Shown here piece by piece: positions 7,750 through 60,198 of a stretch of DNA of 64,000 nt. Each line of letters starts with the position of its first letter. Within the stretch, counting starts at the first letter, position 1. The translations under genes were made by a program, and so were the position numbers. The DNA is from a virus, in the IMG/VR virus record IMGVR_UViG_3300047321_000238, positions 48,297 to 112,296 of that record; one strand, written 5' to 3'. The notes under the pieces were generated by a model that was not told the origin of the DNA, made no database searches, and worked only from the letters and a program-made list of their open reading frames with translations.

Positions 7750-8367
7750 ATGGAAAACATCAATAAGAATTTAGACTTCATGGACTTAACAGGAAACGTA
7801 AAGGATATGAGAATTATCAATAATACACAAGTTGGTATATTCTCTGTTGTGCAAAAGCATTTAACAGAATCATATTTTCACACATCAAGAGGATATATCA
7901 AAGTTGATCCTGTTGTATCTATAATATGTGTTGAACATGCTAAAGGTAAAATGGAACTATTAGCTGGAATCAAGATGTTAGAAACAGTCCAAATGATTAA
8001 CTATTTGATTGAAAAGAATTTCACAATTGCTGAACTTCCTACAGAAGTTGCAAAGATCAGAAACTACAGAGCTATTATAAGAACTGTAGAAAATAAGTTG
8101 AAGTTCGAAGCTAAACAATTATTAGTAGCTAAAGAAGCAGAGAATAAAGAAATAGAGAATAAAGAAATAGAAACTACTGTAGTTGTTGAACCAATCAAAA
8201 AACAACTTCCTAAGATGAAGACTCTTTCTGATATACCTTCATATAGAGAAGTTGCTTTAACAGTTGAAGAAAAGAAGATAATGCAAAGCATTGTTCACAC
8301 TAAAGATATAGCATCATCTTTCTTCAACAAAAGTAAAATAATCAATATCTTTAGCAAAACTAAATGA
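7750..8367 (+). CDS. hypothetical protein, 205 aa
   Basis: Track ORF with GGTGAAAGGTGG RBS. Internal ENKEIENKEIE repeat. Confidence 0.5.
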   Translation: MENINKNLDFMDLTGNVKDMRIINNTQVGIFSVVQKHLTESYFHTSRGYIKVDPVVSIICVEHAKGKMELLAGIKMLETVQMINYLIEKNFTIAELPTEVAKIRNYRAIIRTVENKLKFEAKQLLVAKEAENKEIENKEIETTVVVEPIKKQLPKMKTLSDIPSYREVALTVEEKKIMQSIVHTKDIASSFFNKSKIINIFSKTK

Positions 8368-8927: not shown

Positions 8928-11900
8928 TTGAACTTAGGCACTATGAGTGACAGGGATAATGGGGTACAAATAAAAATATATGATGAAAAGGATGGATACA
9001 AAATGATAAACACAAACACATTAACTAATGGAACTACTACAACAAACACAAATGAAGGGATGGATGTACAAATGGTAAATATCAATGTAACAAACGTAGC
9101 TAAAATAGTAGGGGTATCAAATGAAGAAGTTGTAGCATTAGCTATAAGATTAGGTTTAGAAGTTTCAACATCAGGTAAGAAAATAAACAATGTTATTTCT
9201 ACTGCAATTGTAGTTGAAGCTGTTAATGATTTAATAGCTAAAGATGAAGTTGCAGTTACAAATATAGTAAACAATAATGAAGGGATGGATGTAAAAATGG
9301 TTAACAAGATTAAAGAGGAAATAATGGAAATGGTTTATTCTGAAATGAACAAGGAAATAGCTAAACAAGAAATTAGAGACGAATACTTAAACAGAGTTGC
9401 AACTGTTGCAGCTATAGTTGATGAATCTAATAAAAAGTACAAAAGAAATACTTTAAGCAAAGTAGAATTAGTTGATTATGTAGTAGCTAACAATATCGAA
9501 GTTAATGACAAAGAATTAAGAGCACTATATTCTCAATTAAATGCTGCAAGAGATAAAGAAGCTAAATCAGAATTAGTTCACAAGATCATAGATCAAATGA
9601 ATGAAGGTAAATTCACTTATAAAATGTATGCAACTGCTAATAAGTACAAGCACCTTTTATCTGAAGATGATACAATTACTTTTGAATTAGCATTAGATGT
9701 AGCTCTTAATAAGGCTTCTATGAAGAACTACAAGAACCTATTAGCTGTTAAAAGATGGACTAAAGATATCACTGTTGCATTATTAAGAAGAGTTGTTTGC
9801 TATACTGGTAATCAATATGAAACAGAAGTAGCTCCTCAAATGTTCAGTTCTCTAATCAGAGCTTGTGATGTTACAGTTAAAGATGTTGCAGATTCTAAGA
9901 TGACTTTAAATGGATACACTACTGATGAGTTACTATTATTCTCATTCGATAAAGATGTATTAAAATTAACTGGAAATAATGACAGAGAAGTATTAGCTAA
10001 AAAAGATTACCTAGCTAAAGTATTCTATATCATTGCTGGATTATCTGAACAAAAGGTTTATATAGTTGAAAGAAAATCAGGTATTGCAGATGTTTATACT
10101 AATATCAACAAGATCAAATTAAATGAAGGTGAAGTTATAAAACAATATGAATTCTTAGGAATAACTCCATCTGGTTTAAGATCTGGAACTATGACATTAG
10201 CTATCACTAAAGAAATTCACGCTGATGGAACTGTTGTTGAAAGAGATAGAAGAGTTGAAATCATGGACAAAGCTTCTGATAATTCATTCAGCATTAACTT
10301 TATCGTAGGTGCGAATGAAAATGGACAAGCTATATTCAAAGATTGCGAATCAGTACTTGATGCATTTAAAGAAATGTCTAGAATGATGTTATGTGCTACA
10401 TCTTCAAAAGTGCTTGGTAAATTAGACTCTTATGTTGTATTAGATAATTTATCTTTTGGTGCAGGATATAATGCTAAAGATACTAACTCTCCTGCTAAAA
10501 TGGGTGAAGAAAATTTCGTAGATTGTCAAGATACTACTGATGGTTTAGGATTAATATCTAATGATATGTTAAAAGAAAATCTTCAAGCTATGAACATTCC
10601 ATGCTCAATTAAAGACTTATTAGGAATGACATTCCAAGCTAGAGGTGGCGGATTAAAGATTGCTGCAATGTCAAGATCTAAAGAAGCTATTAGACTAGAA
10701 GCAAAAGCATCATTAAGCAGAGGAGCATCTGTATTAAGAGCTGTATTCAAAGGACAAGAAGTTAAAGCTAAAGATCTAACTGATGAAATGTTAGATAACA
10801 TGCAAGGATTGTTTGATGGTAATGGTATGAAGTTAATCGATCACAATGCTGAAATCGAATTAGTAATGCTTAAGAAAGCTTATTCATCTGACTCTAAATT
10901 ATCTGATGTTGTTAATATTATAATGATGGTTAATGATGAACAAGCTACTACAGCATTATTATCTTCTAAAATAAAAAGTCAAATCTTAGACAAATTAAAA
11001 GACATTGGTATAAACGTAGATTACAATGCAGAAACTGATGAAGTTATCAGCGTAAAATGTGATCTTAAGAACTTAAAAAGAATCAACAATGACAGTCAAA
11101 CAGTTGAATGGATGTTTAGATCTCTTCCTGAAACTATGATTGCATTAGCTCCTGGTGTTCAAAAGACAAACTTTAATAGCTTATTGAAAGGTTTAGCTAA
11201 CCTAATCAACGAGCTTAATGTTGAAGTTAATTGTGAATATACTGTTGTTCAATCAGATCCAGCAGTTAGATTTGGTGTAAGAATAATAAAAGAAGATGAA
11301 GTATTCTGCCCAAGCTTAATAGAAGTAAATAAAGTATCAGGTGTTAGACATCCAGTATCAAACTTATTTGCTGTTTCTACATTCAAGACACTTACTCTAA
11401 AAACTATCTTAAAGAGAATTGATAAATTGAATGTATCTCTTGAAGTTAAAAACATGTTATTTGAATTCTACAAAGGAGTAGAAGGTTATGCTATAATACC
11501 AGCATCTCACTACTACATGGAAAAACATGATGGAATGGATTTCGATATCGATGCTATGCAATTTTTCTTAGATCAAGAAGTAGTAGCAATACTTGAAAAG
11601 ACTTCTGATATAGGAACAATAATTGATAGATCTATTGATGAAGAAATGGATTGTTCTATTAAGGAATCTAATGATGACCATGCTATCAAAGCTTTCTACA
11701 AAGATATTAACAAGAAAGATTTCCACCCTATAGCTTATGATGTAAAAGTATCTGAAGAAAAGATAGCACCAGTTAAAGCATTAAAAGGAATGGTTATGCC
11801 TAAGAAGATTAATGTTGCTTCTACTGAAGATAATCATTACAAGAAAAATGCAAATGGAAGATACTCATTAGACTTCTCTTCAGTTGCTATGATGGTATTA

Positions 11901-13946
11901 GATTATTTCTTAAACCCAATAGATTCAGTTGGTATCATGGCAACAAACTTCTATAATAATGCTAAAATACTTATGGCATTAAAATCAATTAACACTGAAA
12001 TCACTAAAGAAATGAAACAATTCATAGTTCAAGGAATGAGAACAATGTTTTCTTGTAGTGGTTTAAAGAAGTATTCTTCTCCAATCAGAAAGAACAATGA
12101 CGGAACAAAATTTAACTACAACGATAGAAATAAAGTTGTTCTATGCAAAGATGTTTGTCACAAAATAATCAAAACATTTATCAACTCTAAAGGAGATTTT
12201 GCAGATTGTATTCAATTCTTAATTGATGTATGTATTTGTAGTAGATATCCAGCTGAAACTTCTATTGATAGTGCTAAGAAAATGTATAAAGTTATAAACA
12301 TGTTTGCATTATCTGGTTGTATTAAAGCTATGGGTTGTAAAAATGCTGTTAAATTCTTAAACTTTGATCCATATATGTTAGATGACCAAGGTAACTCTAT
12401 TGAAGAAGTAGAAACTACAAAAGCATTCACTAACATTATTGACATCTTTAATGCAGCTCAACCAAAAAATGCTCTACAATATTCAACAAACAATTTCTTT
12501 GGATTAAAATTAATAAAAGAAGAAATGTCATGTGTTGGTTGGGAAGATGCTGATAAGGCTATGTTAGCTTTCAATACAGAGAAAAAAGTAGCAGGTATTA
12601 AAGATCCTACTTATCTATTAAAAGAAAGACTAATGAACTTTGCTAATTCAGTTATAGTATTTGCAGCTAAAGAATTAGAAGCATTTGTTAAATCAGATGA
12701 AGCTAATGCTATCAGAAAAGAATTCAAAGGTTTCTACAATTCAGAAGATAATTATTTCAGAGTTGATAAAGTAGTATCTAACATCGTTGGTACTTATATC
12801 ACATTAACTGAATCAATCAAAGCTTCAGAAAATGATGAAATAGATGATATAACTGCAAAGAAATATCTTAAGACAAATGCATTACAAGCTCTAATGAACA
12901 CAGCTAAACTTTCATTTAAAACAGCTAGAAAACCAGTATCTGATGAAGAAATTGGAGCAGGTGTGTTCTATTATATGATTACTTCTTTTGAAAAAGAAAA
13001 AGACAATGTATGTACTTCAGTTAACTCTAAGATTCTTGATATCTTCCAAAAAGAGATATTAGCATTCTTAAAATCTAAAGGATATGATATGCTTGCTGCT
13101 GAAGAAATATTATATGCTGTTAATCCTGTAACTAACAGACAAGTTAAATTAAATACAACAGAAGGATTAACATGTTCTGCATATAATGGTCATGGTACAA
13201 TTGAATTAGAAGATGGTTCAATCTATTTATTAACTCTAAAGAATAAGAAAGCATCTTTTGATAATGGTACTATTTCTATAGTAGATGATAAGTATGTTGT
13301 TGTTCAACAAAGAAAAACTTTAGAAGAAAATATACAATCAGGATTCTACTTTGGTGCTAAAATGGAAAAAGGAATATTCAACAAAGCTAATCTTCTAATG
13401 CAAGATATTAAAAAGACTACTGGTGATTACAATGAATACAAAGCAGCATTAGCAGAAATAAATCCTAATAACATTTTAGCTGAGACACAATATGATGAAA
13501 TTCTTTTCAGAACAAGAAGAGAAATGGACGAAAGAGGAAAATCATATACAGCTAATCTTTTAATTGGTATGAAAGATGATCAAGAATGTTTAATAGCTGA
13601 GTTATACCTTAATACAATCGTTGCTCAATTATTACAAACTGCTGAGTTATCTGAAAGCAATGTAAGATTATTCATGACTGAAAATAGTTGTACTGTTAAC
13701 ATTATTGAAGACTCTCTATTAGCTGAAGTTGAATCAGTTAGCACTCCTGACACTATAAGTGATTCATTTGGATTAGATGACTTAGAAGGATTCAGTAACT
13801 CAATAATAGATTATTCTTGTTATGATGTTACTCCAGTTCAAGAAAACTATGATGAAAAACAATTCGTTGCAATTACAACAAACTACGATATTCCTCAAGT
13901 TGACATGTGCAATGACGAAAACTATTTAAATGGTTTAACTCAATAA
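8928..13946 (+). CDS. giant protein, 1672 aa, with a DFDID (DxDxD) motif; candidate two-barrel RNA polymerase-like enzyme
   Basis: Single uninterrupted ORF, track start TTG at 8928 (alternative ATGs at 8943 and 9004). Motif HDGMDFDIDAMQ resembles the beta-prime NADFDGDQM Mg-binding loop. Direct repeat NEGMDV[QK]MVN near the N-terminus. Confidence 0.8.
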   Translation: MNLGTMSDRDNGVQIKIYDEKDGYKMINTNTLTNGTTTTNTNEGMDVQMVNINVTNVAKIVGVSNEEVVALAIRLGLEVSTSGKKINNVISTAIVVEAVNDLIAKDEVAVTNIVNNNEGMDVKMVNKIKEEIMEMVYSEMNKEIAKQEIRDEYLNRVATVAAIVDESNKKYKRNTLSKVELVDYVVANNIEVNDKELRALYSQLNAARDKEAKSELVHKIIDQMNEGKFTYKMYATANKYKHLLSEDDTITFELALDVALNKASMKNYKNLLAVKRWTKDITVALLRRVVCYTGNQYETEVAPQMFSSLIRACDVTVKDVADSKMTLNGYTTDELLLFSFDKDVLKLTGNNDREVLAKKDYLAKVFYIIAGLSEQKVYIVERKSGIADVYTNINKIKLNEGEVIKQYEFLGITPSGLRSGTMTLAITKEIHADGTVVERDRRVEIMDKASDNSFSINFIVGANENGQAIFKDCESVLDAFKEMSRMMLCATSSKVLGKLDSYVVLDNLSFGAGYNAKDTNSPAKMGEENFVDCQDTTDGLGLISNDMLKENLQAMNIPCSIKDLLGMTFQARGGGLKIAAMSRSKEAIRLEAKASLSRGASVLRAVFKGQEVKAKDLTDEMLDNMQGLFDGNGMKLIDHNAEIELVMLKKAYSSDSKLSDVVNIIMMVNDEQATTALLSSKIKSQILDKLKDIGINVDYNAETDEVISVKCDLKNLKRINNDSQTVEWMFRSLPETMIALAPGVQKTNFNSLLKGLANLINELNVEVNCEYTVVQSDPAVRFGVRIIKEDEVFCPSLIEVNKVSGVRHPVSNLFAVSTFKTLTLKTILKRIDKLNVSLEVKNMLFEFYKGVEGYAIIPASHYYMEKHDGMDFDIDAMQFFLDQEVVAILEKTSDIGTIIDRSIDEEMDCSIKESNDDHAIKAFYKDINKKDFHPIAYDVKVSEEKIAPVKALKGMVMPKKINVASTEDNHYKKNANGRYSLDFSSVAMMVLDYFLNPIDSVGIMATNFYNNAKILMALKSINTEITKEMKQFIVQGMRTMFSCSGLKKYSSPIRKNNDGTKFNYNDRNKVVLCKDVCHKIIKTFINSKGDFADCIQFLIDVCICSRYPAETSIDSAKKMYKVINMFALSGCIKAMGCKNAVKFLNFDPYMLDDQGNSIEEVETTKAFTNIIDIFNAAQPKNALQYSTNNFFGLKLIKEEMSCVGWEDADKAMLAFNTEKKVAGIKDPTYLLKERLMNFANSVIVFAAKELEAFVKSDEANAIRKEFKGFYNSEDNYFRVDKVVSNIVGTYITLTESIKASENDEIDDITAKKYLKTNALQALMNTAKLSFKTARKPVSDEEIGAGVFYYMITSFEKEKDNVCTSVNSKILDIFQKEILAFLKSKGYDMLAAEEILYAVNPVTNRQVKLNTTEGLTCSAYNGHGTIELEDGSIYLLTLKNKKASFDNGTISIVDDKYVVVQQRKTLEENIQSGFYFGAKMEKGIFNKANLLMQDIKKTTGDYNEYKAALAEINPNNILAETQYDEILFRTRREMDERGKSYTANLLIGMKDDQECLIAELYLNTIVAQLLQTAELSESNVRLFMTENSCTVNIIEDSLLAEVESVSTPDTISDSFGLDDLEGFSNSIIDYSCYDVTPVQENYDEKQFVAITTNYDIPQVDMCNDENYLNGLTQ

Positions 13947-13993: not shown

Positions 13994-14010
13994 TTGAAAG
14001 GATGATTATA

Positions 14011-15102
14011 ATGAAAACAATTAATAACAAACAATTAGAAACAGGAAAGAAAATAGTAAATCAATTAGGAGTTAACAAAACTGCTATAGCACTAACTCAT
14101 TATAATGTAGAAAAGAACAATATTGATATCAGAATGTTTTTGTACTCAGATGAAGACATTACAATATATACAACTGGTAGATTGTTTTTAGGAACATATA
14201 AAAAGGAAGATAAAAAGTTCTCATTCGATCCTGCTACTAAACTACCTTATGTTGTAGGATGCAATAACATTAAGACTCGTAGAGAAGTTAAGGATGCTAT
14301 TAAGAAAGTATTATCTACTCATGCAGATGTATTAAAAATGAGTAATGGATACAAAAACTTAATTAATGATGTAGAGGATGTTTTACTTTATGTTATCAAG
14401 AGTGGAATTATTAAAGGCAGCTACTTACCACTTGAGGCACAACTAAAACATAATTGGATCATGAATCCAGACACAATAATTGTAGAGGGTGAGTCAGTAG
14501 CTAAACATGAAATAGCAGTAACAACAGATACTAATACAAAAACAGAAGGAGAAGTCAAAATGAATATAATGAGTGCGGCACATAAACTAAGAAAAGAAAT
14601 GGAAATAGAAGATAAAGAATATGCATCTTACAGCTATAAACTTAAAATGAAGATTGCATTAAAGTATGCATGGGATACATGTCATATTAATAAAGTAGTA
14701 GCTATTAAAGAAGTAGCTATTACTGTAGATAAAGTGATAAACATAAATACACGTAGACCAGAGCCAACAGCTAAGGATGAAGTTATGGCAAGTAAGCTTG
14801 AACCATTAACAGCTAAGTGCGACAATGGCAAGAAAAGAATCAAAGGAGAAACTTATATTGTATCCACACCAGGACACGTTAATATAGAAGATCACATTGG
14901 AACAGTGATTAAGGCTTTTGATATATCCACTCAAATATTAGGCAGAAAAACATTAGCTGAGTTAAATGTGAAATTCACTGAAAGAAAGTTTGCAGAGAGC
15001 AGATTTTACAGAGAGAATGCACATAAGTTAATTATTGTTACTAGCCATAAAGATGAATATGAACAAATTAAAAACCCAAGAGGATTTATACTTGTTAAAT
15101 AG
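14011..15102 (+). CDS. hypothetical protein, 363 aa
   Basis: Track ORF 14002. The ATG at 14011 follows AAAGGA, so it is the likelier start. Confidence 0.55.
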   Translation: MKTINNKQLETGKKIVNQLGVNKTAIALTHYNVEKNNIDIRMFLYSDEDITIYTTGRLFLGTYKKEDKKFSFDPATKLPYVVGCNNIKTRREVKDAIKKVLSTHADVLKMSNGYKNLINDVEDVLLYVIKSGIIKGSYLPLEAQLKHNWIMNPDTIIVEGESVAKHEIAVTTDTNTKTEGEVKMNIMSAAHKLRKEMEIEDKEYASYSYKLKMKIALKYAWDTCHINKVVAIKEVAITVDKVININTRRPEPTAKDEVMASKLEPLTAKCDNGKKRIKGETYIVSTPGHVNIEDHIGTVIKAFDISTQILGRKTLAELNVKFTERKFAESRFYRENAHKLIIVTSHKDEYEQIKNPRGFILVK

Positions 15103-15104
15103 TA

Positions 15105-15190
15105 TTGCCCCCTTCGGGGATAGATCAGTGCCATTCCTTCGGATAAATATAAATAAGCTCCCTCCGCTCGCAGTCCCTTCGGGAACAAAT
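15105..15190 (+). ncRNA. three C-rich UUCG-loop mini-hairpins (CC-UUCG-GG x3) in non-coding DNA
   Basis: cccccttcgggg, tccttcgga and tcccttcggga fall within 80 nt in a 28% GC genome. No long ORF fits here. Confidence 0.25.
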
Positions 15191-15213
15191 AAACTAACTT
15201 CGTTAGTAGAAAT

Positions 15214-15240
15214 AAGCTTCGCAGACTAATCGTGCGGATT
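15214..15240 (+). promoter_or_regulatory. conserved intergenic motif copy a (AAGCTTCGCAGACTAATCGTGCGGATT)
   Basis: Member of a 5-copy motif family with core TAATCATGCG flanked by CGCA/TGCG inverted repeats. Confidence 0.35.
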
Positions 15241-15296
15241 CTATGAGAGCTATATTGAAACTAAGTTCTTATTGAACTATTTAGTTCTCATAATAA

Positions 15297-15336
15297 ATTC
15301 GCTACACTCATAGTCTTAGTCATGCGTGTTATCTGA
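15297..15336 (+). promoter_or_regulatory. conserved intergenic motif copy b (degenerate)
   Basis: CGCTACACTCATAGTCTTAGTCATGCGTGTTATCTGAG. Confidence 0.3.
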
Positions 15337-15374
15337 GATTATCCTTAATCCCAAATCTCATCTTATCCCAATAA

Positions 15375-15415
15375 ACTCACTACGTTCGTAGTTTTAATCA
15401 TGCGGATATCTTGAG
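15375..15415 (+). promoter_or_regulatory. conserved intergenic motif copy c
   Basis: CACTACGTTCGTAGTTTTAATCATGCGGATATCTTGAG. Confidence 0.35.
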
Positions 15416-15580
15416 ACATTTATATGCTTACTCATAGTTATAAACTTACTTACGAGTGACATTATAAATTCAATTAGCTATTAATTAGCTACTACATACA
15501 TACAACAAGGGGGAAATAATAGGAGACTTGCGTTTAATCCATTTCTCAGGTTAAATCTATATGCTCTGTATGTATAAAAT

Positions 15581-15620
15581 AAGCTACGCAGTTTAATCAT
15601 GCGTATTATTCGTGTAACTC
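15581..15620 (+). promoter_or_regulatory. conserved intergenic motif copy d
   Basis: AAGCTACGCAGTTTAATCATGCGTATTATTCGTGTAACTC. About 90% identical to copy e at 19029. Lies 265 bp upstream of gene 15885. Confidence 0.4.
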
Positions 15621-15884
15621 TAATGCTGAAAATAGAGTGTAGACTTAGCAGGTTCTTCTATTGCTTGCTATATGTTGAACGTATAAATGGAATCCTTATA
15701 TATTATTTATGTCTGTAATAATATAAGAAGTTAGCCCAAGACATGTTGTATATATATGAGAGTGCACGCTTATGTATATATTCCTAATTAAATTATTAAA
15801 TATGTATACATCCCTACTTACGAGTGAATGTATATATATAAGAATGATTTAAGCGAAAACGAAAAAATCAAAATTTGAAAGGAA

Positions 15885-16445
15885 ATGATTAAAATGGAAA
15901 AGAGAATATTTTTAGCAACAAAGAAAGAACACACAGTAGGAGTAGTGTTTAATGTAACAGAGAATAAATGTAACAGAATTCCTACAATCGTATATGAACA
16001 CGCTGGACAAATGAATGGCTTCAGTGACACAAGACTTAGTGCAATGAGTGCATTAATAAAAGTAATTGAAGAAAATAATAGTACTGAACTTACAAATGTA
16101 GTACCAGTATTTGTTAATGAAGCATTAGCAAAGTTTATAACTGATGAAACATATAAGTTCTGGATTAAGACTGGTGCAAAAAGTACTGGTGAAGTAATTA
16201 GTGAAAATGAAATGACAATACTAAAGAAGTTCGTAGAAGTTTGGAAAGAAAAAGGAGATGACTTTGTAATCAGAGATATATTTACTTGTCGTATTAATGA
16301 TAAAGTAAAAGCTGACCCTGCAAAGATATCTAAATTCAAACCATACAGCAGACAAAATGACGCATACTGCAGATACTGTTGGGACGAAATTGCTAAACTA
16401 TATAATGAAACAGTTGAAGCATCTATAGCATCAGTTGCAGTTTAA
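15885..16445 (+). CDS. hypothetical protein, 186 aa
   Basis: Track ORF with AAAGGAAATGA RBS-like sequence. C-terminal CRYCWDE. Confidence 0.55.
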   Translation: MIKMEKRIFLATKKEHTVGVVFNVTENKCNRIPTIVYEHAGQMNGFSDTRLSAMSALIKVIEENNSTELTNVVPVFVNEALAKFITDETYKFWIKTGAKSTGEVISENEMTILKKFVEVWKEKGDDFVIRDIFTCRINDKVKADPAKISKFKPYSRQNDAYCRYCWDEIAKLYNETVEASIASVAV

Positions 16446-16547
16446 ATAAATAGATATATGAGATTGATTACTTATCGTAGTCTTTCTCATATTTTTTATG
16501 TTATTTATGTGAAAATAATAAAACAATAAGAGGAGAGAATAAATAAA

Positions 16548-16742
16548 ATGAAAATTAATCAATCAAGAAAGTCAACACATTCAATCATGGCTCATCAAAG
16601 TTTCGAAGGAGTATTACTAATTAAAGATGGTATCAAAATGTATATACCTAAAGAATGGATTACTCAAAAAGGTAAGATAAAGAAGTATGCATTAAAAGCA
16701 TTTGATAAGTTACAAAAGGAAGAACTAAGAAAGGCAATTTAA
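16548..16742 (+). CDS. hypothetical protein, 64 aa
   Basis: Track ORF with AGAGGAGAG RBS. Confidence 0.45.
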   Translation: MKINQSRKSTHSIMAHQSFEGVLLIKDGIKMYIPKEWITQKGKIKKYALKAFDKLQKEELRKAI

Positions 16743-16906
16743 ATTATGTTCAGAATAAAATATGTAGTAAGTGGTTTGGTTAAAGAACAATTATATGAAG
16801 ACACATTCTATGCAGTCAGTTTAAGACAAGCATGGTATTACTTTGGTAAGAAGTACGGCTTCAATATTAGGGACTTTAAGAGACTGAATAGTGGGGGAAT
16901 AGCATC

Positions 16907-17389
16907 ATGAAGAAACTTAATGTGTTCATAGATGGAGCATGTAAAGATGTAAAGAACAAAGAAAAAGCAATTGGTGGTTGGGGATACATAATCACTGATG
17001 AATATTTTAATGTTATCAAACAAGATAATGGCAAAATAAGAGAAGGCATCCAAGATAGTAATCGTGCAGAACTTGAAGGACTGTATCAAGCATTACTTAA
17101 GATGAAGACGTTTAAAGGAAATAATAAGTTCCATATCTATACTGATTGTGAAAGCATAGCAGATAGTTTAAATGGATATTCAGAACGTAGAGCCAATAGA
17201 GATTATTGGGATAATATAGAACCTATATGTAAAAGGTTAGCAGGACACTTTAGAATATCTCACATCGTAAGTCATCAAGTAAATGATAACGATGATAAAT
17301 TTATTGAGTATAATAATAAAGTAGACAAGCTAGCAAGAATTGGAGCAAATAGTCTAACTAAAGCACCAGTAACAAACATAGCAATATAA
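16907..17389 (+). CDS. rnh: ribonuclease H (RNase HI-like)
   Basis: VFIDGAC...IGGWGYII...SNRAELEGLYQAL...IYTDCESIA...DYW match the RNase H catalytic D-E-D-D layout. Confidence 0.75.
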   Translation: MKKLNVFIDGACKDVKNKEKAIGGWGYIITDEYFNVIKQDNGKIREGIQDSNRAELEGLYQALLKMKTFKGNNKFHIYTDCESIADSLNGYSERRANRDYWDNIEPICKRLAGHFRISHIVSHQVNDNDDKFIEYNNKVDKLARIGANSLTKAPVTNIAI

Positions 17390-17418
17390 AAATTTATGAG
17401 ATGAAAGAGGTAATCATT

Positions 17419-17724
17419 ATGAAACTAGGATTTAAATTAGGAAATATAGAATATAACGAAATCAAATTAAGCAATGTAGAATTAAACGTACAATTCTCAG
17501 CAGAAGAATTAGTAGCAGAATATGATTTATTAAAAAGAATAGCTAAAGAACTTCCAGAGATATGTACAGATTTAGCTAATGGAGCAGTAGCATTTGCAGA
17601 AATAGATAAAGCATTTACTAAGTATACAACTGCAGTAGTAGCAGAAGATTCAACAGAAGAAACAAAAACAACTGCAATGGATCTAGTTAAGTCAGCTATT
17701 AATAAAATCAATCAAGCAGTATAA
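17419..17724 (+). CDS. hypothetical protein, 101 aa
   Basis: Track ORF 17401. The ATG at 17419 follows AAAGAGG, so it is the likelier start. Confidence 0.5.
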   Translation: MKLGFKLGNIEYNEIKLSNVELNVQFSAEELVAEYDLLKRIAKELPEICTDLANGAVAFAEIDKAFTKYTTAVVAEDSTEETKTTAMDLVKSAINKINQAV

Positions 17725-17754
17725 TTAAAACAATAAGAAGGAAGTGTAATTAAT

Positions 17755-18579
17755 ATGTCAAAAATAGATATAGATATGAATTCAACAGTAAAAATAAACG
17801 GTGGAAAGTCTTTAAATATGGCAGAGTTTGCAGATAAGTTTGGAGTAGATTTAGCTAATCCTCAATTAGTAGTATCAACAGCTAATATATTAGAGAAACA
17901 AGGCAAGTTAATAGTAGTTGAAACTAAATCTAAAGAAGAACAAATCGTAGACCAAGCAATGGGACAAGAAGTATTCCAAAGTGTTGTAGAAAATTTAGAT
18001 AATGAAGAACAAGCTTATAAAGAACAACTAAGAGAAGCTAAGAAAGCAGAATCAGATGTATTAAAAATAACATTAGCATTTATAACAACATTAGATGCAA
18101 CAAAGTTTAATATGTGGTTAACTAGCTTAGGAGTAACTGAAGTATCTCAAATAATAAAGAATGGTTGTATTAAACTATTAATAGAAGATATAACTCCGCA
18201 AGAATATACTAAGATATCAGCTAAGTATAAAGCAGAGAAAGCTATTAATGCAACAGTTAATACAACAAGTAAAGTAATGAATGGAACTACTAATGCTGTA
18301 AACTATGGTTTAAGTGAAGTAGTCGCACCTGTAGCTAAAATAGCAGGAGAAGCTGGTATGAATTTAGGTAAAGGATTATTCCATACTCTAATTAAAACAG
18401 GAGCAGGTTTAATCAATAGTGGAGCTAAAGCAGTTACAGATACTAAAATAGCTTTAATGACAGATCCTGAATGTTTAAGAGCAACTAGTCAATTAATCGA
18501 TGCAAAGAATAATATAACTAGAGGCGTTAATAAACAAATGAATAATAGAGGATTTGGATCAGGAATCGAAATACTATAA
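17755..18579 (+). CDS. hypothetical protein, 274 aa, Gly/Ala-rich C-terminal third
   Basis: Track ORF with AGAAGGAAG RBS. Confidence 0.55.
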   Translation: MSKIDIDMNSTVKINGGKSLNMAEFADKFGVDLANPQLVVSTANILEKQGKLIVVETKSKEEQIVDQAMGQEVFQSVVENLDNEEQAYKEQLREAKKAESDVLKITLAFITTLDATKFNMWLTSLGVTEVSQIIKNGCIKLLIEDITPQEYTKISAKYKAEKAINATVNTTSKVMNGTTNAVNYGLSEVVAPVAKIAGEAGMNLGKGLFHTLIKTGAGLINSGAKAVTDTKIALMTDPECLRATSQLIDAKNNITRGVNKQMNNRGFGSGIEIL

Positions 18580-18726
18580 TAGATAGGAGTTGTTGTAATG
18601 GGACAATTAATAGCTAAAGTACTATTTAATCAGAAGGTGATGAGCAGTATTGTTCCGCCTTCTCTACTTAGTAATTTAGGAAACATAATAACAAAAGCAG
18701 TATTAAAATAATAGGAGTGATATATA

Positions 18727-18963
18727 ATGTTAGAACATCAACCAATCTTGAGAGCATTAATAGAACAAGGATATAGTAGCAAGATGTTAGGTGCAGTTAT
18801 TAATGAGAAGACTCAAAGAGGAACTGCATTAATCAAACTAGACTCTATAGAAAAACCATTTAATATATACTGGAATAAACATAAATCACAATGGCAAGAC
18901 GTAAAACCAGCAGAAGAAGTATCACCTGCAATAGTAGAAAGATACTACGCATCAGCAATATAA
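18727..18963 (+). CDS. hypothetical protein, 78 aa
   Basis: Track ORF with AGGAGTGA RBS. Confidence 0.45.
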   Translation: MLEHQPILRALIEQGYSSKMLGAVINEKTQRGTALIKLDSIEKPFNIYWNKHKSQWQDVKPAEEVSPAIVERYYASAI

Positions 18964-19028
18964 GATTAAAATAGCTATTGGTAATCTACTTAATCTAATA
19001 TATAAATAATAAAATCCTATATATAAAT

Positions 19029-19065
19029 AAGCTTCGCAGTTTTAATCATGCGTATTATTTGTATA
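19029..19065 (+). promoter_or_regulatory. conserved intergenic motif copy e
   Basis: AAGCTTCGCAGTTTTAATCATGCGTATTATTTGTATA, immediately after gene 18727..18963. Confidence 0.4.
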
Positions 19066-19511
19066 TAGGTTGGACCCTTAATCCATGAAAAGACGATTGG
19101 AGCATCTACGTATGTTGGGTATCGCAAAGTTTTCATTAATCCATCCCGTTCCTTATAGTATTATGCAGGATTTAGAATTCATTCTTGCATTCCTACTATA
19201 GGGAATACCCCTAAAAAGACTCAATCTTGCAAGAAAAAGAAAACCAACTTTCAGAATTACTATTATTGTGGAATAGATTATAATATATGCAAATATATTT
19301 TTAAGCTATCTTAACACAATTATGGTTAATTTTTTTCAGAGTTGGACACTAGTGTAATATATATAACACCAATTAACAGCTAACGCAGTTATGGAAATAA
19401 CACTTTGATATAGCTTAAAGTATATTTGCTGTTAATACACAATTCGTACTTACGAGTGCCGTAGATGCATATGCGACATAAAGTTAAGATGGATTTGTGC
19501 TTCCGAGTGCG

Positions 19512-19693
19512 AGCGTTAGCGAGCACGTATAATTAAATAGCGTTAGCGTCAATTATATAATAGCGTTAGCGTCAAAATTAAATAAAGCGTTAGCGTAGAT
19601 TTATAAATAGATATAATCTTCTATAGTATACCCATACTATTATGAAGTATATCGTCCTACAATTCCATTCAGTGACAGTTATAGCGTTAGCGT
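19512..19693 (+). repeat. iteron-like array: 5 direct copies of AGCGTTAGCG(T/A) spaced 13-26 bp apart, with a more distant fifth copy
   Basis: Copies at 19512, 19539, 19562, 19586 and 19683, embedded in AT-rich DNA inside a 1.1-kb ORF-free region (18964..20055). Confidence 0.5.
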
Positions 19694-20055
19694 TTAATAA
19701 CAAGCGTAGAATCGATTGTATCATCTATTAAGAGTAGCCATGTGTATACATACTACTAAACTTTAATAGATGCAACGTTGAACACGTAGTGCGAAACACA
19801 ATAAAATTATAATAATTTCTCTATACCTACCTAGCAGAATGTAAGTGATGTGGTAGTAGAGGATTAGGAGTCATATCTCCGTTTTAAAGAAATGGCACTC
19901 GTAGACCTGAACCAAGACGGTTTTGGGACGTAATCGGTGCTTTCACGTTATAATGGATATAAGCGTAGTGAGTAGTCTAAAAACGAACGGATTACTATTA
20001 CAGTAGTATATATACTTATATACACACATGGAATAAAAATAAAGGAGATTATAAT

Positions 20056-20286
20056 ATGCCTAATTATAATAGAATAAAACAAGAATTAATTAATAAAAGA
20101 ATTGAAGAAAGATATGATGGAGTAGATATGTTAACATCACGTCTTACTAATGGAGATATAGCTATTAAATGTAATGATATAGATAATAAGTGTAACCATC
20201 CTAATGGTTGTTGTATATTAAGTTTACAAGAATTTCAAGAATGGAATTGTAAATGTGCATATCAAAATAAGTATTACTTTAGGTAA
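20056..20286 (+). CDS. small Cys-rich protein, 76 aa
   Basis: Track ORF with AAAGGAG RBS. Contains CNHPNGCC and CKC cysteine clusters. Confidence 0.5.
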   Translation: MPNYNRIKQELINKRIEERYDGVDMLTSRLTNGDIAIKCNDIDNKCNHPNGCCILSLQEFQEWNCKCAYQNKYYFR

Positions 20287-20303
20287 GAAAGGATATATAA
20301 TAG

Positions 20304-20636
20304 ATGGAAGTATTAAAGTATATTAATGATACGTTAGTATCATATACATTAGCTGAACTATATGATAATAGAATAGGAATATCTGTAAGTAACGTAGAAG
20401 AGTTTATAGACATAATCGATAAATTAGATGCAACAGGTTTAGTGTATATGCCTACCGATGTAAAACGAGATAAGGTAGCATTGTACAATAGAGGTACAAG
20501 TAAAAATAGTTGTATATTAATAGAAAGAAGACCTGACCTAGGTAAATGTGAATATATATTAAGGTATTATTCAGAAGACTATGTAACTATGTATGCTGGC
20601 ACTATAAAGAAGTATAGTGAGGTGACATTAGTATAA
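20304..20636 (+). CDS. MELLKYIN-leader family small protein (MEVLKYIND)
   Basis: Conserved N-terminus. AAAGGA RBS. Tandem with the following family members. Confidence 0.65.
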   Translation: MEVLKYINDTLVSYTLAELYDNRIGISVSNVEEFIDIIDKLDATGLVYMPTDVKRDKVALYNRGTSKNSCILIERRPDLGKCEYILRYYSEDYVTMYAGTIKKYSEVTLV

Positions 20637-33084: not shown

Positions 33085-33299
33085 TGAGATGGAAAAAGAT
33101 AATCAAGAAATTTCCTAAGATAGGAGATACAAGAGTAATTAGTTATTTCGCATTACTTTTAGTAGAAATAGATAAAGAAGTAAGATGGCTTGAAAAAGTA
33201 ACAGTAAAACAAATAAGAGCATATAAGTACTATGGTCCTTGTGGTCAATACGGTCCACATTGGAAGAATATAAAATTTATAGATGAAGAGGTGAAATAA
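33084..33299 (+). CDS. hypothetical protein, 71 aa
   Basis: Track ORF. Overlapping start and stop with neighbours. Confidence 0.45.
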   Translation: MRWKKIIKKFPKIGDTRVISYFALLLVEIDKEVRWLEKVTVKQIRAYKYYGPCGQYGPHWKNIKFIDEEVK

Positions 33300-34075
33300 T
33301 GTTAAAGTTTATTGGAAGAGGATCTTGTTTTAATTCAAAAGAAGGAAACAATTCAGCTTATATAAAAAAAGGTGAAAGTTTCTTATTAATAGATTGTGGT
33401 TGTCTAACTGCAAATAAGATAATTGAATCAAATTTATTAGATGGAGTAAAGAAAGTTCATATATTAATAACGCATTTCCACGATGATCATGTTGGTAGCT
33501 TGGGAAGCTTACTATTATATTGTCGTTATGCATTAGATATAATACCAGATATATATTTTGAAGACAAACAGTATTTAGTTGATTTCTTAGCTATGCAAGG
33601 ACTATTAGAACATGAAGTTTATACGTATATGACAAATAGATATGTTGACGATATGAAATTAACTTATTCTCCAGTTCCAACAAAACATTATGAATTTTAT
33701 AAGCCAATTCAAGAGACTGTTTATTCAAGTGAAATAACAAAGACTGTAGTCATGACAAATTACTTTAAATGCTATGGATATTATCTTGTAAAAAATAATA
33801 TTGAAAGAACAAATCAACATGCATATTATTCTGGAGACAGCAATTCAATTCCAAAAAATATGTTAGATATATTAGAATTTTATGATTCAGCAATTTTATA
33901 TCAAGATGTATGCTTATCAGATGAACATGGATATGCTCATTTACCTCTAAGTAAGTTATGTGAATTAATACCTAAAGAATTAAGACATAAAGTATATTGT
34001 ATGCATTTGAACTCAGATGAATTAATAACTAAATGTAAAGAAGAAGGATTCAACGTTGTTGAAGTGGAGGTTTAA
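33299..34075 (+). CDS. metallo-beta-lactamase-fold hydrolase
   Basis: HxHxDH motif at ITHFHDDHVGSLGS. Confidence 0.6.
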   Translation: MLKFIGRGSCFNSKEGNNSAYIKKGESFLLIDCGCLTANKIIESNLLDGVKKVHILITHFHDDHVGSLGSLLLYCRYALDIIPDIYFEDKQYLVDFLAMQGLLEHEVYTYMTNRYVDDMKLTYSPVPTKHYEFYKPIQETVYSSEITKTVVMTNYFKCYGYYLVKNNIERTNQHAYYSGDSNSIPKNMLDILEFYDSAILYQDVCLSDEHGYAHLPLSKLCELIPKELRHKVYCMHLNSDELITKCKEEGFNVVEVEV

Positions 34076-34077
34076 AA

Positions 34078-34308
34078 ATGGAACATGAACATTTATGTAC
34101 AATACAAATTGTAGAAAAATTTCAAGCACTGATTTCAGAAGTAAAAGATTTTGAATCAGCACTTAAAAGCCTTAGAGGAAACGGACCAGATTGGAACGTT
34201 GGTATAGAAAAAGACGAAAGACCAGCTGTTAAAACTTTATATTTAGCTTATAAAGAAGCAAAAGAAAGAGCTAATGATTTCAATCAAATTATTTGGAAAG
34301 AGGCGTAA
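34078..34308 (+). CDS. hypothetical protein, 76 aa
   Basis: Track ORF. Confidence 0.45.
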   Translation: MEHEHLCTIQIVEKFQALISEVKDFESALKSLRGNGPDWNVGIEKDERPAVKTLYLAYKEAKERANDFNQIIWKEA

Positions 34309-34309
34309 G

Positions 34310-35071
34310 ATGAATAAGATATTAAAAAACAGTATAGTAATTATTGTTCTTCTTATGGCATATTCTTTTATAAGTAATTTTGCAAATATAAATGCTTTGT
34401 TTATGCCAAAAGTAGATACAATATTCGAAGACTTTAAAACATTATTTGCTAATGGAATGCTAACAGAATCTATATTAAAATCATTTTTAAGGATAACAAT
34501 AGCTACAAGTATATCTTGTGCAATAAGTGTTCCTTTAGCATTACTTATATATAGTTCTAAAACATTAGATGATATTATATCACCTATAGCAAATATGTTT
34601 AGATATGTACCAATAACTGCTTTCGGCCCATTATTAATATTATGGGTTGGAATAGGCGAAGATATGAAGATAACATTCTTATTTTGTGCAACATTCTTTT
34701 ATTTCTTACCAACATTGGTAATGAACATGAAAGAAATAGACATAAGACTTATAGAAACAGGTTACACAATGGGAATGAGTAAGTTCCAAGTAATAACTAA
34801 AATTGTAGTACCTTATACGTTACCAAGTATATGCCAAAGCATTCTTATGATGTATGGAATAGGTTGGTCGTATATAGTTGTAGCAGAAGCTACAAATGCA
34901 ACAAGAGGCTTAGGGTATTTAATCAATATAGGTTCTGCAAGAGGTAGAACTGATATGGTATTTATGTCTATGATAACTATAATGGCAATAAGCTTTATAG
35001 TAGACACAATTGGTAATAAATTAATAGCTAAATGTTTTAGCTGGAAGTTTAAAAAAATAGAGGAAAATTAA
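34310..35071 (+). CDS. ABC transporter permease-like protein (NitT/TauT-type)
   Basis: Six predicted TM segments. EATNATRGLGYLIN occupies the position of the EAA loop. Start taken at the ATG after AAAGAGG. Confidence 0.5.
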   Translation: MNKILKNSIVIIVLLMAYSFISNFANINALFMPKVDTIFEDFKTLFANGMLTESILKSFLRITIATSISCAISVPLALLIYSSKTLDDIISPIANMFRYVPITAFGPLLILWVGIGEDMKITFLFCATFFYFLPTLVMNMKEIDIRLIETGYTMGMSKFQVITKIVVPYTLPSICQSILMMYGIGWSYIVVAEATNATRGLGYLINIGSARGRTDMVFMSMITIMAISFIVDTIGNKLIAKCFSWKFKKIEEN

Positions 35072-38190: not shown

Positions 38191-38409
38191 ATGGATTTGT
38201 ATATAAACATAATAAAAGCTCAGTTAGATAACATAATACAATCTAATAAACATTATGTCGCAGCTAAGGGCGATAAAGGTAAGAAACAGTCAGCTTTAGT
38301 ACTGGCTACTAATATATGCAAACTAGAAAAAATTATAGAAGAATCATTAAAAGAGATTGAAAAAGCAGGAGTAGATGTAGATAGAGTAAGAATGAGGTTA
38401 GATTTATGA
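38191..38409 (+). CDS. hypothetical protein, 72 aa
   Basis: Track ORF with AAGGGTGA RBS. Confidence 0.45.
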   Translation: MDLYINIIKAQLDNIIQSNKHYVAAKGDKGKKQSALVLATNICKLEKIIEESLKEIEKAGVDVDRVRMRLDL

Positions 38410-39035
38410 TAGAATGTACTGGTTTATCTATGAAATATGGAAAACAAGAAATCTTTAAAAACTTTAATCATACCTTTAAAGATAACTCAATAACAGCAAT
38501 TATGGGTGAGTCAGGTAAAGGCAAGACTACATTAATTAAATGTATAGCAGGGCTTAATAAAGCTTATGAAGGACAGATTCTATATAAGAAGTCAAAGGAG
38601 GATGCCGCAGGAGATACCATCACTAAACCACATAAGGATATATTTATGATGCATCAAAGCTATACTAATTTTCCTTGGAAAAATTGTTTAGAAAATGTAT
38701 TGTTTCCATTAGAAATTAATGGTAAGATAAGTGAAGCAGATATACTAGAAGCAAAAGAGATTTTGGCTTCTGTTAATCTAAATGGATATGAAGATAAACA
38801 TCCTAGTGAATTATCTGGAGGAATGAATCAAAGGTTAGCAATGGCAAGAATGCTAATGGCCAAGCCTAGAGTTCTTTTGATGGACGAGCCTATGAGTGCG
38901 TTAGATAGCGTAACTAGAGGTAAAGTACAGGATTTATTGATGAATTTCCAAAGGAAACTAAAAAATACAATCATATTAATAACACATGATGAAAGCGAAG
39001 CTAAGAGAATATCAAGTGAGATAATAAATTTTTAG
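38406..39035 (+). CDS. ABC transporter ATP-binding protein
   Basis: Walker A GESGKGKTTL, ABC signature LSGGMNQR, Walker B VLLMDEP, H-loop ITHD. Confidence 0.8.
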   Translation: MIECTGLSMKYGKQEIFKNFNHTFKDNSITAIMGESGKGKTTLIKCIAGLNKAYEGQILYKKSKEDAAGDTITKPHKDIFMMHQSYTNFPWKNCLENVLFPLEINGKISEADILEAKEILASVNLNGYEDKHPSELSGGMNQRLAMARMLMAKPRVLLMDEPMSALDSVTRGKVQDLLMNFQRKLKNTIILITHDESEAKRISSEIINF

Positions 39036-40359: not shown

Positions 40360-41928
40360 ATGAAAAGATTTAAATTTACAAAAACAGCGAGGATTTTATT
40401 AGTAATACTAGCTTTAGCTATAATAGGTGTGTTAGGTTGGAAAACTGGAGCAGCTAAAAAAGTAGTAACATTTGCAAAGAACGATGTATCTTCAGTATTT
40501 AGTAAAAATGATAGTACTGATGAAATGTATGCAAAAGCAGAAGCAATTAAAAAAGAAGATGGAGCTATTAATATATCATTAGATGAATGGGTTGGTTGGA
40601 AACCTATTATAGATGCTAACGGTGGTTTACAAACTGCTAAAGGAAGTATCTTAGATAAAAAAGGAATTAAATTAAACATTTCAGTAATTAATGATTATAC
40701 TCAATCAAGTAATGCTTTAATCAAAGGTGATCTTAATGCCGCTGGTTATACAGTAAATAGATATGCTTTTCTTTATGACAAATTTAAATCAGCTAATGTT
40801 GAAACTAATATGGGTATCATAATTGATAACTCCAATGGTGGTAACGGAATTATAGCTAAAAAAGGTATTAATAGTTTAAGAGATTTAATAGGTAAGAAGA
40901 TTGGTATTCCAAGATTCTCTGAATGTCAAGCAATGGTAGAATTCTTAATCCAAAAATCAGATTTAACAGCTGATGAAGCTACAAAATTAAGAGCAGGATT
41001 CGTTCCATTTGACTCTCCAGATGATACAGCTAAAGCATTCTATGCTGGAGAATTAGATGCAGCATCAACTTGGCAACCATATCTAACACAAGCAACATCT
41101 ACAGTAGATGCACATATATTGTTCTCTACAAAAGATGCTCCAAACTTAATTATGGATGGTCTTGTGTTTAGAAAAGATTTCGCAGATAAGAATAAAGAAA
41201 CTATCGAAAAATTATTAGAAGGTATTTTAGAAGCACAAGCAATATATTCTACAGATGCAAAAGCTATATCTCAATCTTTCCCAATGTTTGCAACTCAAAC
41301 AGATAAAGAAACTTTAGATATGACTGGTGATTCACAACCAACTAATAGTGCAAGTATGTTAAATTATATGGATAAAAACGGAGCTGCTGTCAACTTATTC
41401 AGAGATATGGCTAACATATGGTCTGGATTAGGAGAAAAATCAGATCCAGCAAATGCAGCAGTTGCATTTGATAACACTTATATTAAAGATGTTGCACCTA
41501 AATATACTGATGCTAAGGTAGCAAAGCCAACATTTACTGCAGAACAAAAACAAACTGCACAATCTCAAGATAATAAACAAGCTTTATTAAGTCAAAAATT
41601 ATCTATTAGTTTTGATGTTGGTAGTGCAAGTATATCTTCAGATAGTTATGCATCATTAAAAGAATTCTTTAACACAGCGAATATATTAAACGGTACTGTT
41701 ATCCAAATTGAGGGTAACACAGATAATACTGGAGATGCAACAGCTAACCAAGCATTATCTGAAAAGAGAGCACAAAGTATTGCAAAATACTTACAAGCTC
41801 AAGGTTTAGATGCAAGTAGATTCGTAGTTATTGGTAATGGACCTAATAAACCAGTTGCAGATAATAATTCTGCCGAAGGTCAAGCTGCTAATAGAAGAAC
41901 AGATATGTACTTCAAAGTAGTTAAATAA
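40360..41928 (+). CDS. membrane-anchored substrate-binding-like protein with C-terminal OmpA/MotB peptidoglycan-binding domain
   Basis: N-terminal TM or signal segment. C-terminal GNTDNTGDATANQALSEKRAQSIAKYL...GNGPNKPVADNNSAEGQAANRRTDM matches the OmpA-C pattern. Confidence 0.6.
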   Translation: MKRFKFTKTARILLVILALAIIGVLGWKTGAAKKVVTFAKNDVSSVFSKNDSTDEMYAKAEAIKKEDGAINISLDEWVGWKPIIDANGGLQTAKGSILDKKGIKLNISVINDYTQSSNALIKGDLNAAGYTVNRYAFLYDKFKSANVETNMGIIIDNSNGGNGIIAKKGINSLRDLIGKKIGIPRFSECQAMVEFLIQKSDLTADEATKLRAGFVPFDSPDDTAKAFYAGELDAASTWQPYLTQATSTVDAHILFSTKDAPNLIMDGLVFRKDFADKNKETIEKLLEGILEAQAIYSTDAKAISQSFPMFATQTDKETLDMTGDSQPTNSASMLNYMDKNGAAVNLFRDMANIWSGLGEKSDPANAAVAFDNTYIKDVAPKYTDAKVAKPTFTAEQKQTAQSQDNKQALLSQKLSISFDVGSASISSDSYASLKEFFNTANILNGTVIQIEGNTDNTGDATANQALSEKRAQSIAKYLQAQGLDASRFVVIGNGPNKPVADNNSAEGQAANRRTDMYFKVVK

Positions 41929-60177: not shown

Positions 60178-60198
60178 ATAATCTTGAGGGGGATTAAA

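Follow-up and report, generated by a model that had tools for sequence, protein, structure and literature searches.

What kind of element is a long motif that recurs, always in one direction, in the non-coding DNA beside the gene of a giant phage protein, and which enzyme reads it? The question is raised by a stretch of 64,000 nucleotides (nt) of viral DNA, positions 48,297 to 112,296 of the IMG/VR record IMGVR_UViG_3300047321_000238, which is called the window here and whose first letter is position 1 of its coordinates. A preliminary description, made from the letters alone, had noticed a motif of ~30 nt present five times between positions 15214 and 19065, and proposed that it could be a promoter for a phage-encoded RNA polymerase, with the giant protein as its reader, or else an element acting as RNA. 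The first of these proposals gained strong circumstantial support, i.e., a polymerase encoded in the same genome, a long asymmetric motif, intergenic copies co-oriented with the genes, and a 5' half that varies between lineages; the second found little, and the preliminary interpretation as a whole is partly supported. On balance, we consider it reasonably probable that the element is a phage-polymerase-specific promoter, of a known kind and tied to an undescribed polymerase family, and that its reader is the single-subunit two-barrel RNA polymerase which this phage encodes at positions 9003-13946.

The analysis shows the reality, anatomy, distribution, strand bias and conservation pattern of the motif, and the fold of the polymerase. 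The copies reported at 15214, 15297, 15375, 15581 and 19029 were all found at these places on the + strand, within the gaps 15103-15884 (gap 1) and 18964-20055 (gap 2), which are indeed the sole two long stretches of the region free of open reading frames (ORFs). Their shared core, which is TA(A/G)TC(A/G)TGCG and not T(A/T)AT C(A/G)TGCG as first read, starts at 15227, 15317, 15395, 15594 and 19043, always on the + strand, and the looser form (A/G)TC(A/G)TGCG has no sixth match on either strand of the 64 kb. In a leave-one-out scan of ~128,000 positions with a position-weight matrix, each omitted copy came at rank 5, right behind the other four; with the full five-copy matrix the copies scored 30-32 bits and the next best site 10 bits. 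Because of these ranks, the score gap and the lack of any other core match, the set of five is non-random and complete for the window, whose G+C content is 29%. A search of IMG/VR with the exact motif TTAATCATGCGTATTAT returned just four chance matches with unrelated flanks, and the DNA of the region had no nucleotide match among GenBank phages.

The extents first assigned to the units were too short. Full units are asymmetric, 35-50 nt long, and reach further 5', to a AATAAGCT/AATAAACT box, ending in ...T-G-A/T-R (R, purine); the layout of the upstream block in the window is AATAAGCT..(T)CGCAG..TTTAATCATGCG. The parts referred to below are an invariant G, numbered G(+1), T(-1), G(-9), a TTTT run and the TAATCATGCG block. 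Copy a (15210-15248, AAATAAGCTTCGCAGACTAATCGTGCGGATTCTAT-G-AGA) has its invariant G, the proposed +1, at 15245. Copies b (15290-15338) and c (15370-15416) are long forms, the former with an 8-nt insert and the latter with CTACGTTCGTAG, their invariant G lies at 15335 and 15413, and their counterparts in the related locus L005 are its copies 4 and 3, respectively. Copy d (15577-15615, G at 15612) is the final one ahead of a 186-amino-acid (aa) gene whose ATG is at 15885, and copy e (19025-19064, G at 19061) lies 7 nt 5' of a structured non-coding block that starts at 19068. The inverted repeat CGCA...TGCG ascribed to all five is intact in a, d and e, while c has CGTA and the arm in b has degenerated to CATA. 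The ~90% identity noticed between d and e holds over ~40 nt with one indel, and the ends of a to c, given before as CT(A/T/C)TGAG, read TATGAG (a), TCTGAG (b) and CTTGAG (c). Two partial units were also found on the + strand at 15148-15209; they consist of AATAAGCT/AATAAACT, N8 and (T)CGCAG/TAG, a UNCG hairpin stands where the 3' core would be expected, and their equivalents in L005 are located at 14480-14555.

The giant protein (1647 aa, 9003-13946, + strand) is the proposed reader of the motif. It contains the invariant VSxxRHPxS...HDGMDFDIDAMQ, and a VSxxRHPxS...EKHDGMDFDIDAMQ stretch is common to its five closest homologues. Its invariant DFDID is the catalytic motif that was mutated in gp66, the virion polymerase of the crAss-like phage phi14:2. 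An alignment with gp66 using hhalign covered the DFDID stretch only, with a probability of 0.8%; since sequence comparison gave no link, the relation between both proteins needed a comparison of folds. The AlphaFold model of residues 402-1284, built from 35 sequences, is confident (pLDDT, predicted local distance difference test, 84; pTM, predicted template modelling score, 0.83), and Foldseek matched it in the PDB to QDE-1 (E 1e-9), RDR2, phi14:2 gp66 (2.5e-5) and the P23-45-type gp64/gp62 enzymes. The DFDID motif, the confident model and the fold matches bear out the earlier view of this protein as an RNA polymerase. Searches with its sequence gave no match in Pfam, PHROG, the PDB or GenBank phages. 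A profile search among 1.8 billion representative proteins recovered ~36 full-length members of the family (clusters at 50% identity) and ~150 remote matches limited to the barrel region, one of which passes the Pfam threshold for the eukaryotic-type RNA-dependent RNA polymerase family. From the structural model, the giant protein is a single-subunit two-barrel RNA polymerase, and it belongs to a previously undescribed family for which neither Pfam nor PHROG holds a model.

The homologues of this polymerase led to eight related loci (L005, L006, L007, L011, L012, L013, L015 and L016), so that nine loci were compared, in seven lineages including that of the window, with polymerase identities of 27-76%; identity to the window goes from 58% (L005) down to ~28%. 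Gene order is kept among them: the polymerase is followed by a fast-evolving gene of 285-457 aa, a non-coding gap and a gene of ~180 aa, and then by a conserved run of small genes (which includes RNase H in the window, L005 and L007), a gene of ~270 aa and a second long gap. In gap 1, each of the loci carries 3-6 arrayed copies of a long motif of the same kind, and single copies usually occur further on. The last copy of the array is always 34-273 nt upstream of the ~180-aa gene. Strict lineage-specific searches of the nine loci gave 35 copies, all of them on the gene strand and 34 outside ORFs, counting ORFs of at least 60 aa, which cover ~80% of the DNA in these loci; in the window both rules hold for 5/5. 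The preliminary description had suggested looking genome-wide at the orientation of the motif relative to genes; in the relatives, the copies are co-oriented with the genes and, with the one exception just counted, intergenic, and the same rule is followed by extra copies in whole contigs of 154 kb and 247 kb. Across IMG/VR, the pattern of the L011 type matched solely the 247-kb contig of its own phage, with five exact copies on one strand, and a looser pattern of the L012 type formed a cluster nowhere but in the 154-kb contig it came from, its other matches being scattered singletons. The sites are few, 5-7 per 150-250 kb, and they are clustered beside the polymerase gene.

This distribution also bears on the idea that the copies are binding sites for another DNA-binding protein of the phage, either the 363-aa partner encoded next to the polymerase or the 186-aa product, and that they form a regulatory or sequestering array rather than being promoters as such. 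Irregularly spaced, clustered non-coding sites beside two conserved genes of unassigned function are what such an array would look like, the copies outnumber the needs of one operon, and the partner protein (17-44% identity among loci) evolves fast, as does the 5' half of the motif. Most operators and partition sites are short and symmetric or can act in either orientation; this motif, however, is 35-50 nt long, asymmetric and in a single direction in 35/35 cases, and its invariant T-G-W-R edge (W, A or T), with a purine at a fixed position, resembles an initiation site. Isolated copies also sit directly 5' of single genes distant from the array, as in L017, and neither of the two neighbouring proteins has a DNA-binding domain detected with Pfam or PHROG. 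A binding array appears distinctly unlikely to us from these observations.

When the 35 copies were anchored on the invariant G, a 3' core common to the whole family emerged, G(-9)RRTTTTRT-G(+1)-W-R. G(+1), W(+2) and R(-7) are present in 35/35 copies, T(-1) in 33, T(-6) in 32, and G(-9) and T(-3) in 30 each, with purines also at -8 and +3. Conservation stops past +3, and such an abrupt 3' edge is typical of promoters. In L007, copy 3 ends 31 nt ahead of an ATG, with just a ribosome-binding site between them, and in an extra copy from L017 the sequence G(+1)AGG is itself the ribosome-binding site, with the ATG 9 nt on. The same 3' core could be read as the ribosome-binding site and start codon (GRR, 5-6 nt, NTG) of tiny leader peptides, given that positions -2 to +1 are ATG, GTG or TTG in ~32/35 copies and that a purine-rich triplet lies 6-8 nt upstream. 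Nevertheless, a stop codon follows the NTG immediately in 8/35 (ATG TAG, ATG TAA, GTG TAA, TTG TAG), the remaining frames of 3-60 codons are unconserved, copies b (CTG) and d (TCG) have no standard start codon, GRR is much weaker than the AAGGAGG sites ahead of real genes here, and the 25-40 nt of conservation upstream would be left unexplained. Start sites of mini-ORFs were rejected on the grounds of the immediate stop codons and unconserved frames, and the leader peptides are very hard to credit.

Upstream of -10, the sequence is strongly kept within a genome and differs between lineages. The block in the 5' half is TTTAATCATGCG in the window, TCTTATNTTGCG in L005, CAAAACYAYGTCNNNTCTTTG in both L006 and L011, ATATCTAATATCGTG in L007, AAATCTAAGACNTGTTCTTAG in L012, and AGTTAGARCCTACGGYCATAWWTGG in L016. 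Likeness in this half follows the identity of the polymerases: it is similar in the window and L005 (58%), the same in L006 and L011 (76%), and unrelated in pairs at ~30%. Meanwhile, other non-coding elements of these genomes, i.e., the ACTTACGAGTG (ACGAGTG) hairpins, the AGCGTTAGCG repeats and the RNA of gap 2, are kept nearly unchanged. Because the 5' half diverges while these elements stay, the comparison of sequences argues that it would be read by a fast-evolving factor encoded by the phage, rather than by the host machinery or through a deeply conserved RNA fold.

A related possibility is that host RNA polymerase, redirected by a sigma-like or appropriator factor of the phage, uses the motif as its promoter while the giant polymerase transcribes something else. 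Redirection of the host enzyme is exemplified by SPO1 gp28/gp34 and by MotA/AsiA and gp55 of T4. The bipartite layout, variable upstream and T-rich downstream, is similar to that of promoters for alternative sigma factors, TATTAT occurs within copies d and e, and the search for a factor covered about half the genome. In that search, a Pfam scan of the 94 ORFs of the window, no sigma-factor, other polymerase or other factor domain was found. The motif is not of the sigma type: as the preliminary description had remarked with respect to sigma-A, no copy was listed in a scan for -35/-10 pairs of the sigma-70 kind (TTGACA/TATAAT, 16-18 bp apart), so that an ordinary host sigma-70/sigma-A promoter was rejected, and matches of this type in the region are not enriched (27, versus 33.6 in shuffled sequence). 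Neither does any of the lineages keep a -10-like hexamer 3' of the core. Moreover, the 5' half diverges wholly, whereas host-type elements such as the ribosome-binding sites and a TATATACACA block 5' of the gene at 20056 stay, and the regulon would be tiny, with its few sites hugging the polymerase gene. We regard redirection of the host enzyme as very unlikely.

The preliminary description had also considered that the inverted repeat might form an RNA hairpin, for instance a processing site or a terminator, and this option found little support, since the stem is weak, no terminator-like site was detected and copies lie near start codons. In the window, the CGCA/TGCG stem has 4 bp and a loop of 9-11 nt, and it is broken in b. 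Folded as single-stranded DNA, units a to e have energies of -2.0 to -5.9 kcal/mol with z values of -0.6, +0.3, -0.05, -2.6 and -1.4; a, b and c do no better than shuffled sequence, e is borderline, and d alone beats the shuffles. The RNA of gap 1 folds with z values of -3.5 (+ strand) and -2.4 (- strand), which does not discriminate, and its minimum-free-energy fold lacks the CGCA/TGCG pairing. There is no support for a stem in L006 or L011, and the units of L006 and L016 fold no better than shuffles; the copies of L012 (7 bp) and copy 1 of L007 (7 bp, 3-nt loop) reach a z of about -2. A hairpin was rejected as a general feature for the window and for L006/L011, and is possible in L012 and L007. 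Likewise, an intrinsic terminator was rejected: the stems are weak and AT-rich, two purines separate the stem from the T-run, and no terminator-like site was detected in 14800-20400.

A weak hairpin followed by a U-tract could still be a sequence-specific signal for termination, pausing or RNA processing. Its target would be the transcript or the phage polymerase, and it would operate between genes and where the polymerase operon ends. In several lineages, G(-9) closes the 3' arm of a short inverted repeat and RRTTTTRT comes directly after it, and the arms of this repeat show compensatory changes in L012 (CTAAGA/TCTTAG versus CAAAGA/TCTTTG) and in L016 (ACC/GGT versus GCC/GGC). The arrays start soon past a stop codon, the copies at 17090 in L006 and 16001 in L011 are 13-20 nt after the end of a gene, and a sequence motif marks the mapped termination sites of P23-45. 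However, the stems have 3-7 bp and -0.3 to -5.9 kcal/mol, mostly no better than shuffles, the bases of loop and flanks are as conserved as those of the stems, and a row of three to six terminators would be more than is needed. The copy 3 of L007 and the copy of L017 leave no space for another promoter before conserved genes; a terminator is ruled out at copies 9-34 nt from start codons, because it would silence these genes. Altogether, we judge a signal of this kind to be quite unlikely.

If the motif is the promoter of the giant polymerase, its operation could be as follows. The lineage-specific block, from about -35 to -10, would give recognition, whereas the family-wide block, G(-9) R R T T T T R T(-1) G(+1) W R, would serve for initiation, with the T-rich stretch as the putative site of DNA opening. 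The RNA would start at or beside the invariant G, i.e., at 15245, 15335, 15413, 15612 and 19061, as suggested by the resemblance of the pattern to the promoters of T7 and N4 (+1 G) and of phiKZ (T-3 ATG+1). Copies a to c would give rise to short non-coding transcripts or simply add up as promoters in tandem; the operon headed by the 186-aa gene would be transcribed from copy d, and the structured non-coding RNA at 19068-19262 from copy e. The binding partner, the RNA start site and the timing are the parts of this scheme that we infer.

Characterised promoters offer analogies for some of these steps. The late promoters of the non-virion polymerase of phiKZ, a two-barrel enzyme, have (T)RTG with G as the start, and the core described here also ends in RTG with an invariant G; unlike this system, the phiKZ enzyme is multisubunit and its promoter lacks an upstream consensus. 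With the promoters of the right-hand, Pol-I-like polymerases the motif shares a long asymmetric consensus, intergenic and gene-co-oriented sites, a block for specificity that changes from enzyme to enzyme, a better conserved block for initiation, and conservation that ends a few nt past a +1 G; it differs from them in the two-barrel fold of the enzyme, in its unrelated and longer sequence (35-50 nt), and in the far fewer and clustered sites. In the promoter of the N4 virion polymerase, a short hairpin is followed by four A's in the template, which act as a ruler, and by a +1 C in the template. Similarly, the short inverted repeat ends here at G(-9) and is followed by TTTT in the non-template strand and then by G. 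Nevertheless, the N4 enzyme is T7-like and requires a stable hairpin (stem of 5-7 bp, loop of 3 nt), which was not found in every copy and is missing in the window and in L006/L011, the copies of L012 and copy 1 of L007 being the nearest to it. A bolder scheme that joins these elements, and which we think unlikely as a whole, is that undescribed giant single-subunit two-barrel polymerases of large AT-rich phages, probably of Firmicutes, use a bipartite promoter that became N4-like by convergence. The upstream half would extrude a small hairpin and the T-rich/G(+1) half would provide the ruler and the start; the enzyme, of an unrelated polymerase fold, would be delivered with the virion and recognise partly single-stranded DNA, and the arrays would fire abundant early non-coding RNAs, including that at 19068-19262, and not mainly mRNAs.

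Several facts weigh against the assignment of the motif to the giant polymerase. All the related loci were found through the polymerase, and the comparison covers polymerase-bearing genomes alone. The divergence of the motif follows not only that of the polymerase but also that of the genomes overall, and the two are inseparable in this set. The motif scan of this phage comprised 64 kb of a genome of at least 122 kb, about half; this size takes into account a 108-kb Logan contig (L009) with an identical polymerase, which stops near window position 49,783, so that the window derives from a larger assembly. Three to eight copies in tandem within non-coding DNA exceed what a single operon needs, and the arrangement of the motif with respect to the RNA of gap 2 varies: L005 has no copy upstream of this RNA, and in L006, L007 and L011 the copy in gap 2 lies downstream of it. 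Finally, among the phage enzymes characterised structurally, the closest one that also has DFDID is phi14:2 gp66, and its early transcripts showed no motif in common upstream; therefore, a long consensus is not a given for this clade.

With regard to the neighbouring genes, the partner gene (14002-15102, + strand, 363-366 aa) lies directly 3' of the polymerase gene and is syntenic in all loci. Its product has no Pfam or PHROG match and is a possible cofactor of the polymerase; related loci were also sought through this 366-aa protein, and none were found. The conserved 186-aa gene (15885-16445, + strand, MEKRIFLA...) is the first protein gene 3' of the array in every lineage; it has no match in GenBank phages, and a lookup of the exact protein returned no record. 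Directly past the stop codon of the partner gene, at 15107-15121, 15134-15144 and 15172-15184, there are GC-rich hairpins with a UUCG tetraloop and no U-tract. The position of the first is kept in all lineages and the array always follows it; these hairpins may serve the polymerase operon as 3'-end or stability elements. Between copies c and d (15474-15491) there is a palindrome, TTAGCTATTAATTAGCTA, which looks like an operator and is also found in L005 (gap 1) and L007 (the gap ahead of the Macro gene).

The structured non-coding block (19068-19262, + strand), directly 3' of copy e, includes GGTTGGACCCTTAATCCATGAAAAGACGATTGGAGCAT...TGGGTATCGCAA and then a long CTATAG/TGCAAG hairpin. It is ~78% identical in nucleotides to that of L005, whose polymerase is ~58% identical in protein, and its consensus fold has 7 compensatory pairs among three lineages. 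In the relatives it is located at 18135-18345 (L005), 13434-13625 (L007), ~19126-19210 (L006) and ~18025-18110 (L011). Owing to the compensatory pairs and the absence of an Rfam match, it is probably a new phage non-coding RNA. Rfam gave no match at the gathering score in the window, and a search of 15000-20200 at E<=5 gave one spurious match to a long non-coding RNA; tRNA and tmRNA genes were sought in the window and none came up. Nor did the window yield a hammerhead; in the relatives, a type III hammerhead ribozyme occurs in L012 at 8056-8114, at exactly the Rfam gathering score, and others (CUGUC...CUGAUGA...GAAACAG), seen by eye and below the threshold, lie in gap 2 of L006 (~18930-18985), L011 (~17830-17890), L012 (~17480-17540), L013 (~8290-8345) and L015 (~17835-17895).

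The ACTTACGAGTG element, a tiny (C)ACT/AGTG stem capped by a tetraloop of the UACG type, occurs in the window at 15448-15458, 15816-15826 and 19448-19458. It is near-exact across all lineages (L005, L006, L007, L011, L012 and L016), often 15-70 nt 5' of a ribosome-binding site, and may be a stabiliser of 5' untranslated regions or a processing site. In gap 2, ACGAGTG-like repeats run ahead of iteron-like AGCGTTAGCG repeats in an AT-rich setting, which in the window comprise five GCGTTAGCG copies at 19513-19692 and an inverted GCTAACGC near 19379; they are kept in L005, L007, L011/L015 and L012, with the form AGCGTCAGCG in L006, and look like a replication origin or another protein-binding array. 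A near-palindrome, ATAGATTATAATATATGCAAATATATTTTTAAGCTATCT, at 19273-19311 is kept almost base for base in L005 and L007, and in L007 a copy of the motif is immediately 5' of it. At 19987-20055, just 5' of the first gene after gap 2, a ...ACGGATTACTATTACAGTAGTAT..TATATACACA block kept in all lineages is a candidate host-type promoter (extended -10-like) of the long downstream operon, distinct from the motif. The contig ends that fall in gap 2 were considered as genome termini and this was dropped, because L012 and the window continue through gap 2; the end of L013 (8866-8906) is a Nextera adapter (CTGTCTCTTATACACATCT), an artefact.

The remainder of the window, 20000-64000, is rich in auxiliary and counter-defence genes, e.g., those at 33299-34075, 34274-35071, 38406-39035, 40360-41928, 49798-51228, 56846-57535 and 60184-61257. 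The window includes genes for NAD salvage (NAMPT-like, NadR-like and the PnuC transporter) and for transport (parts of ABC transporters and a lipoprotein with an OmpA domain), as well as an Apyc1-like metallo-beta-lactamase, Tad8, NADAR, Macro, NUDIX, GGDEF and DUF1256. The DUF1256 gene and the binning of one relative with a metagenome-assembled genome of Lachnospiraceae hint at a Firmicutes host.

To our knowledge, the rules of promoter recognition are known for very few two-barrel RNA polymerases of phages. In the Thermus phage P23-45, conserved motifs upstream of mapped starts define the promoters of both of its single-subunit two-barrel polymerases, i.e., the virion enzyme gp96, with an AT-rich motif, and the non-virion enzyme gp64, with a GC-rich motif (bioRxiv 10.1101/2022.12.01.518664). 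Neither the enzymes nor the motifs have a detectable sequence relation with those described here; the enzyme of the window is free-standing, with its 1647 aa not fused to a tape-measure protein, its motifs form tandem arrays in long non-coding gaps by the polymerase gene, and its starts are deduced, whereas those of P23-45 were mapped. For gp66 of phi14:2, the best-studied giant enzyme of the clade, the early intergenic regions are highly transcribed and no promoter motif was found, in contrast with the strong consensus reported here; in addition, the gp66 gene lies among structural genes, and the polymerase gene of the window is on the + strand among small unassigned genes. In the present case, a polymerase family that is uncharacterised comes together with a candidate promoter of sharp definition, made of a family-wide initiation core and lineage-specific recognition blocks, which makes promoter recognition by this class of enzymes directly testable, with natural specificity-swap variants already at hand. 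If the proposal is true, the earliest regulon would become defined for a group of large phages that are uncultured; it would also point to early non-coding RNAs as major products, and might provide orthogonal transcription parts for AT-rich hosts.

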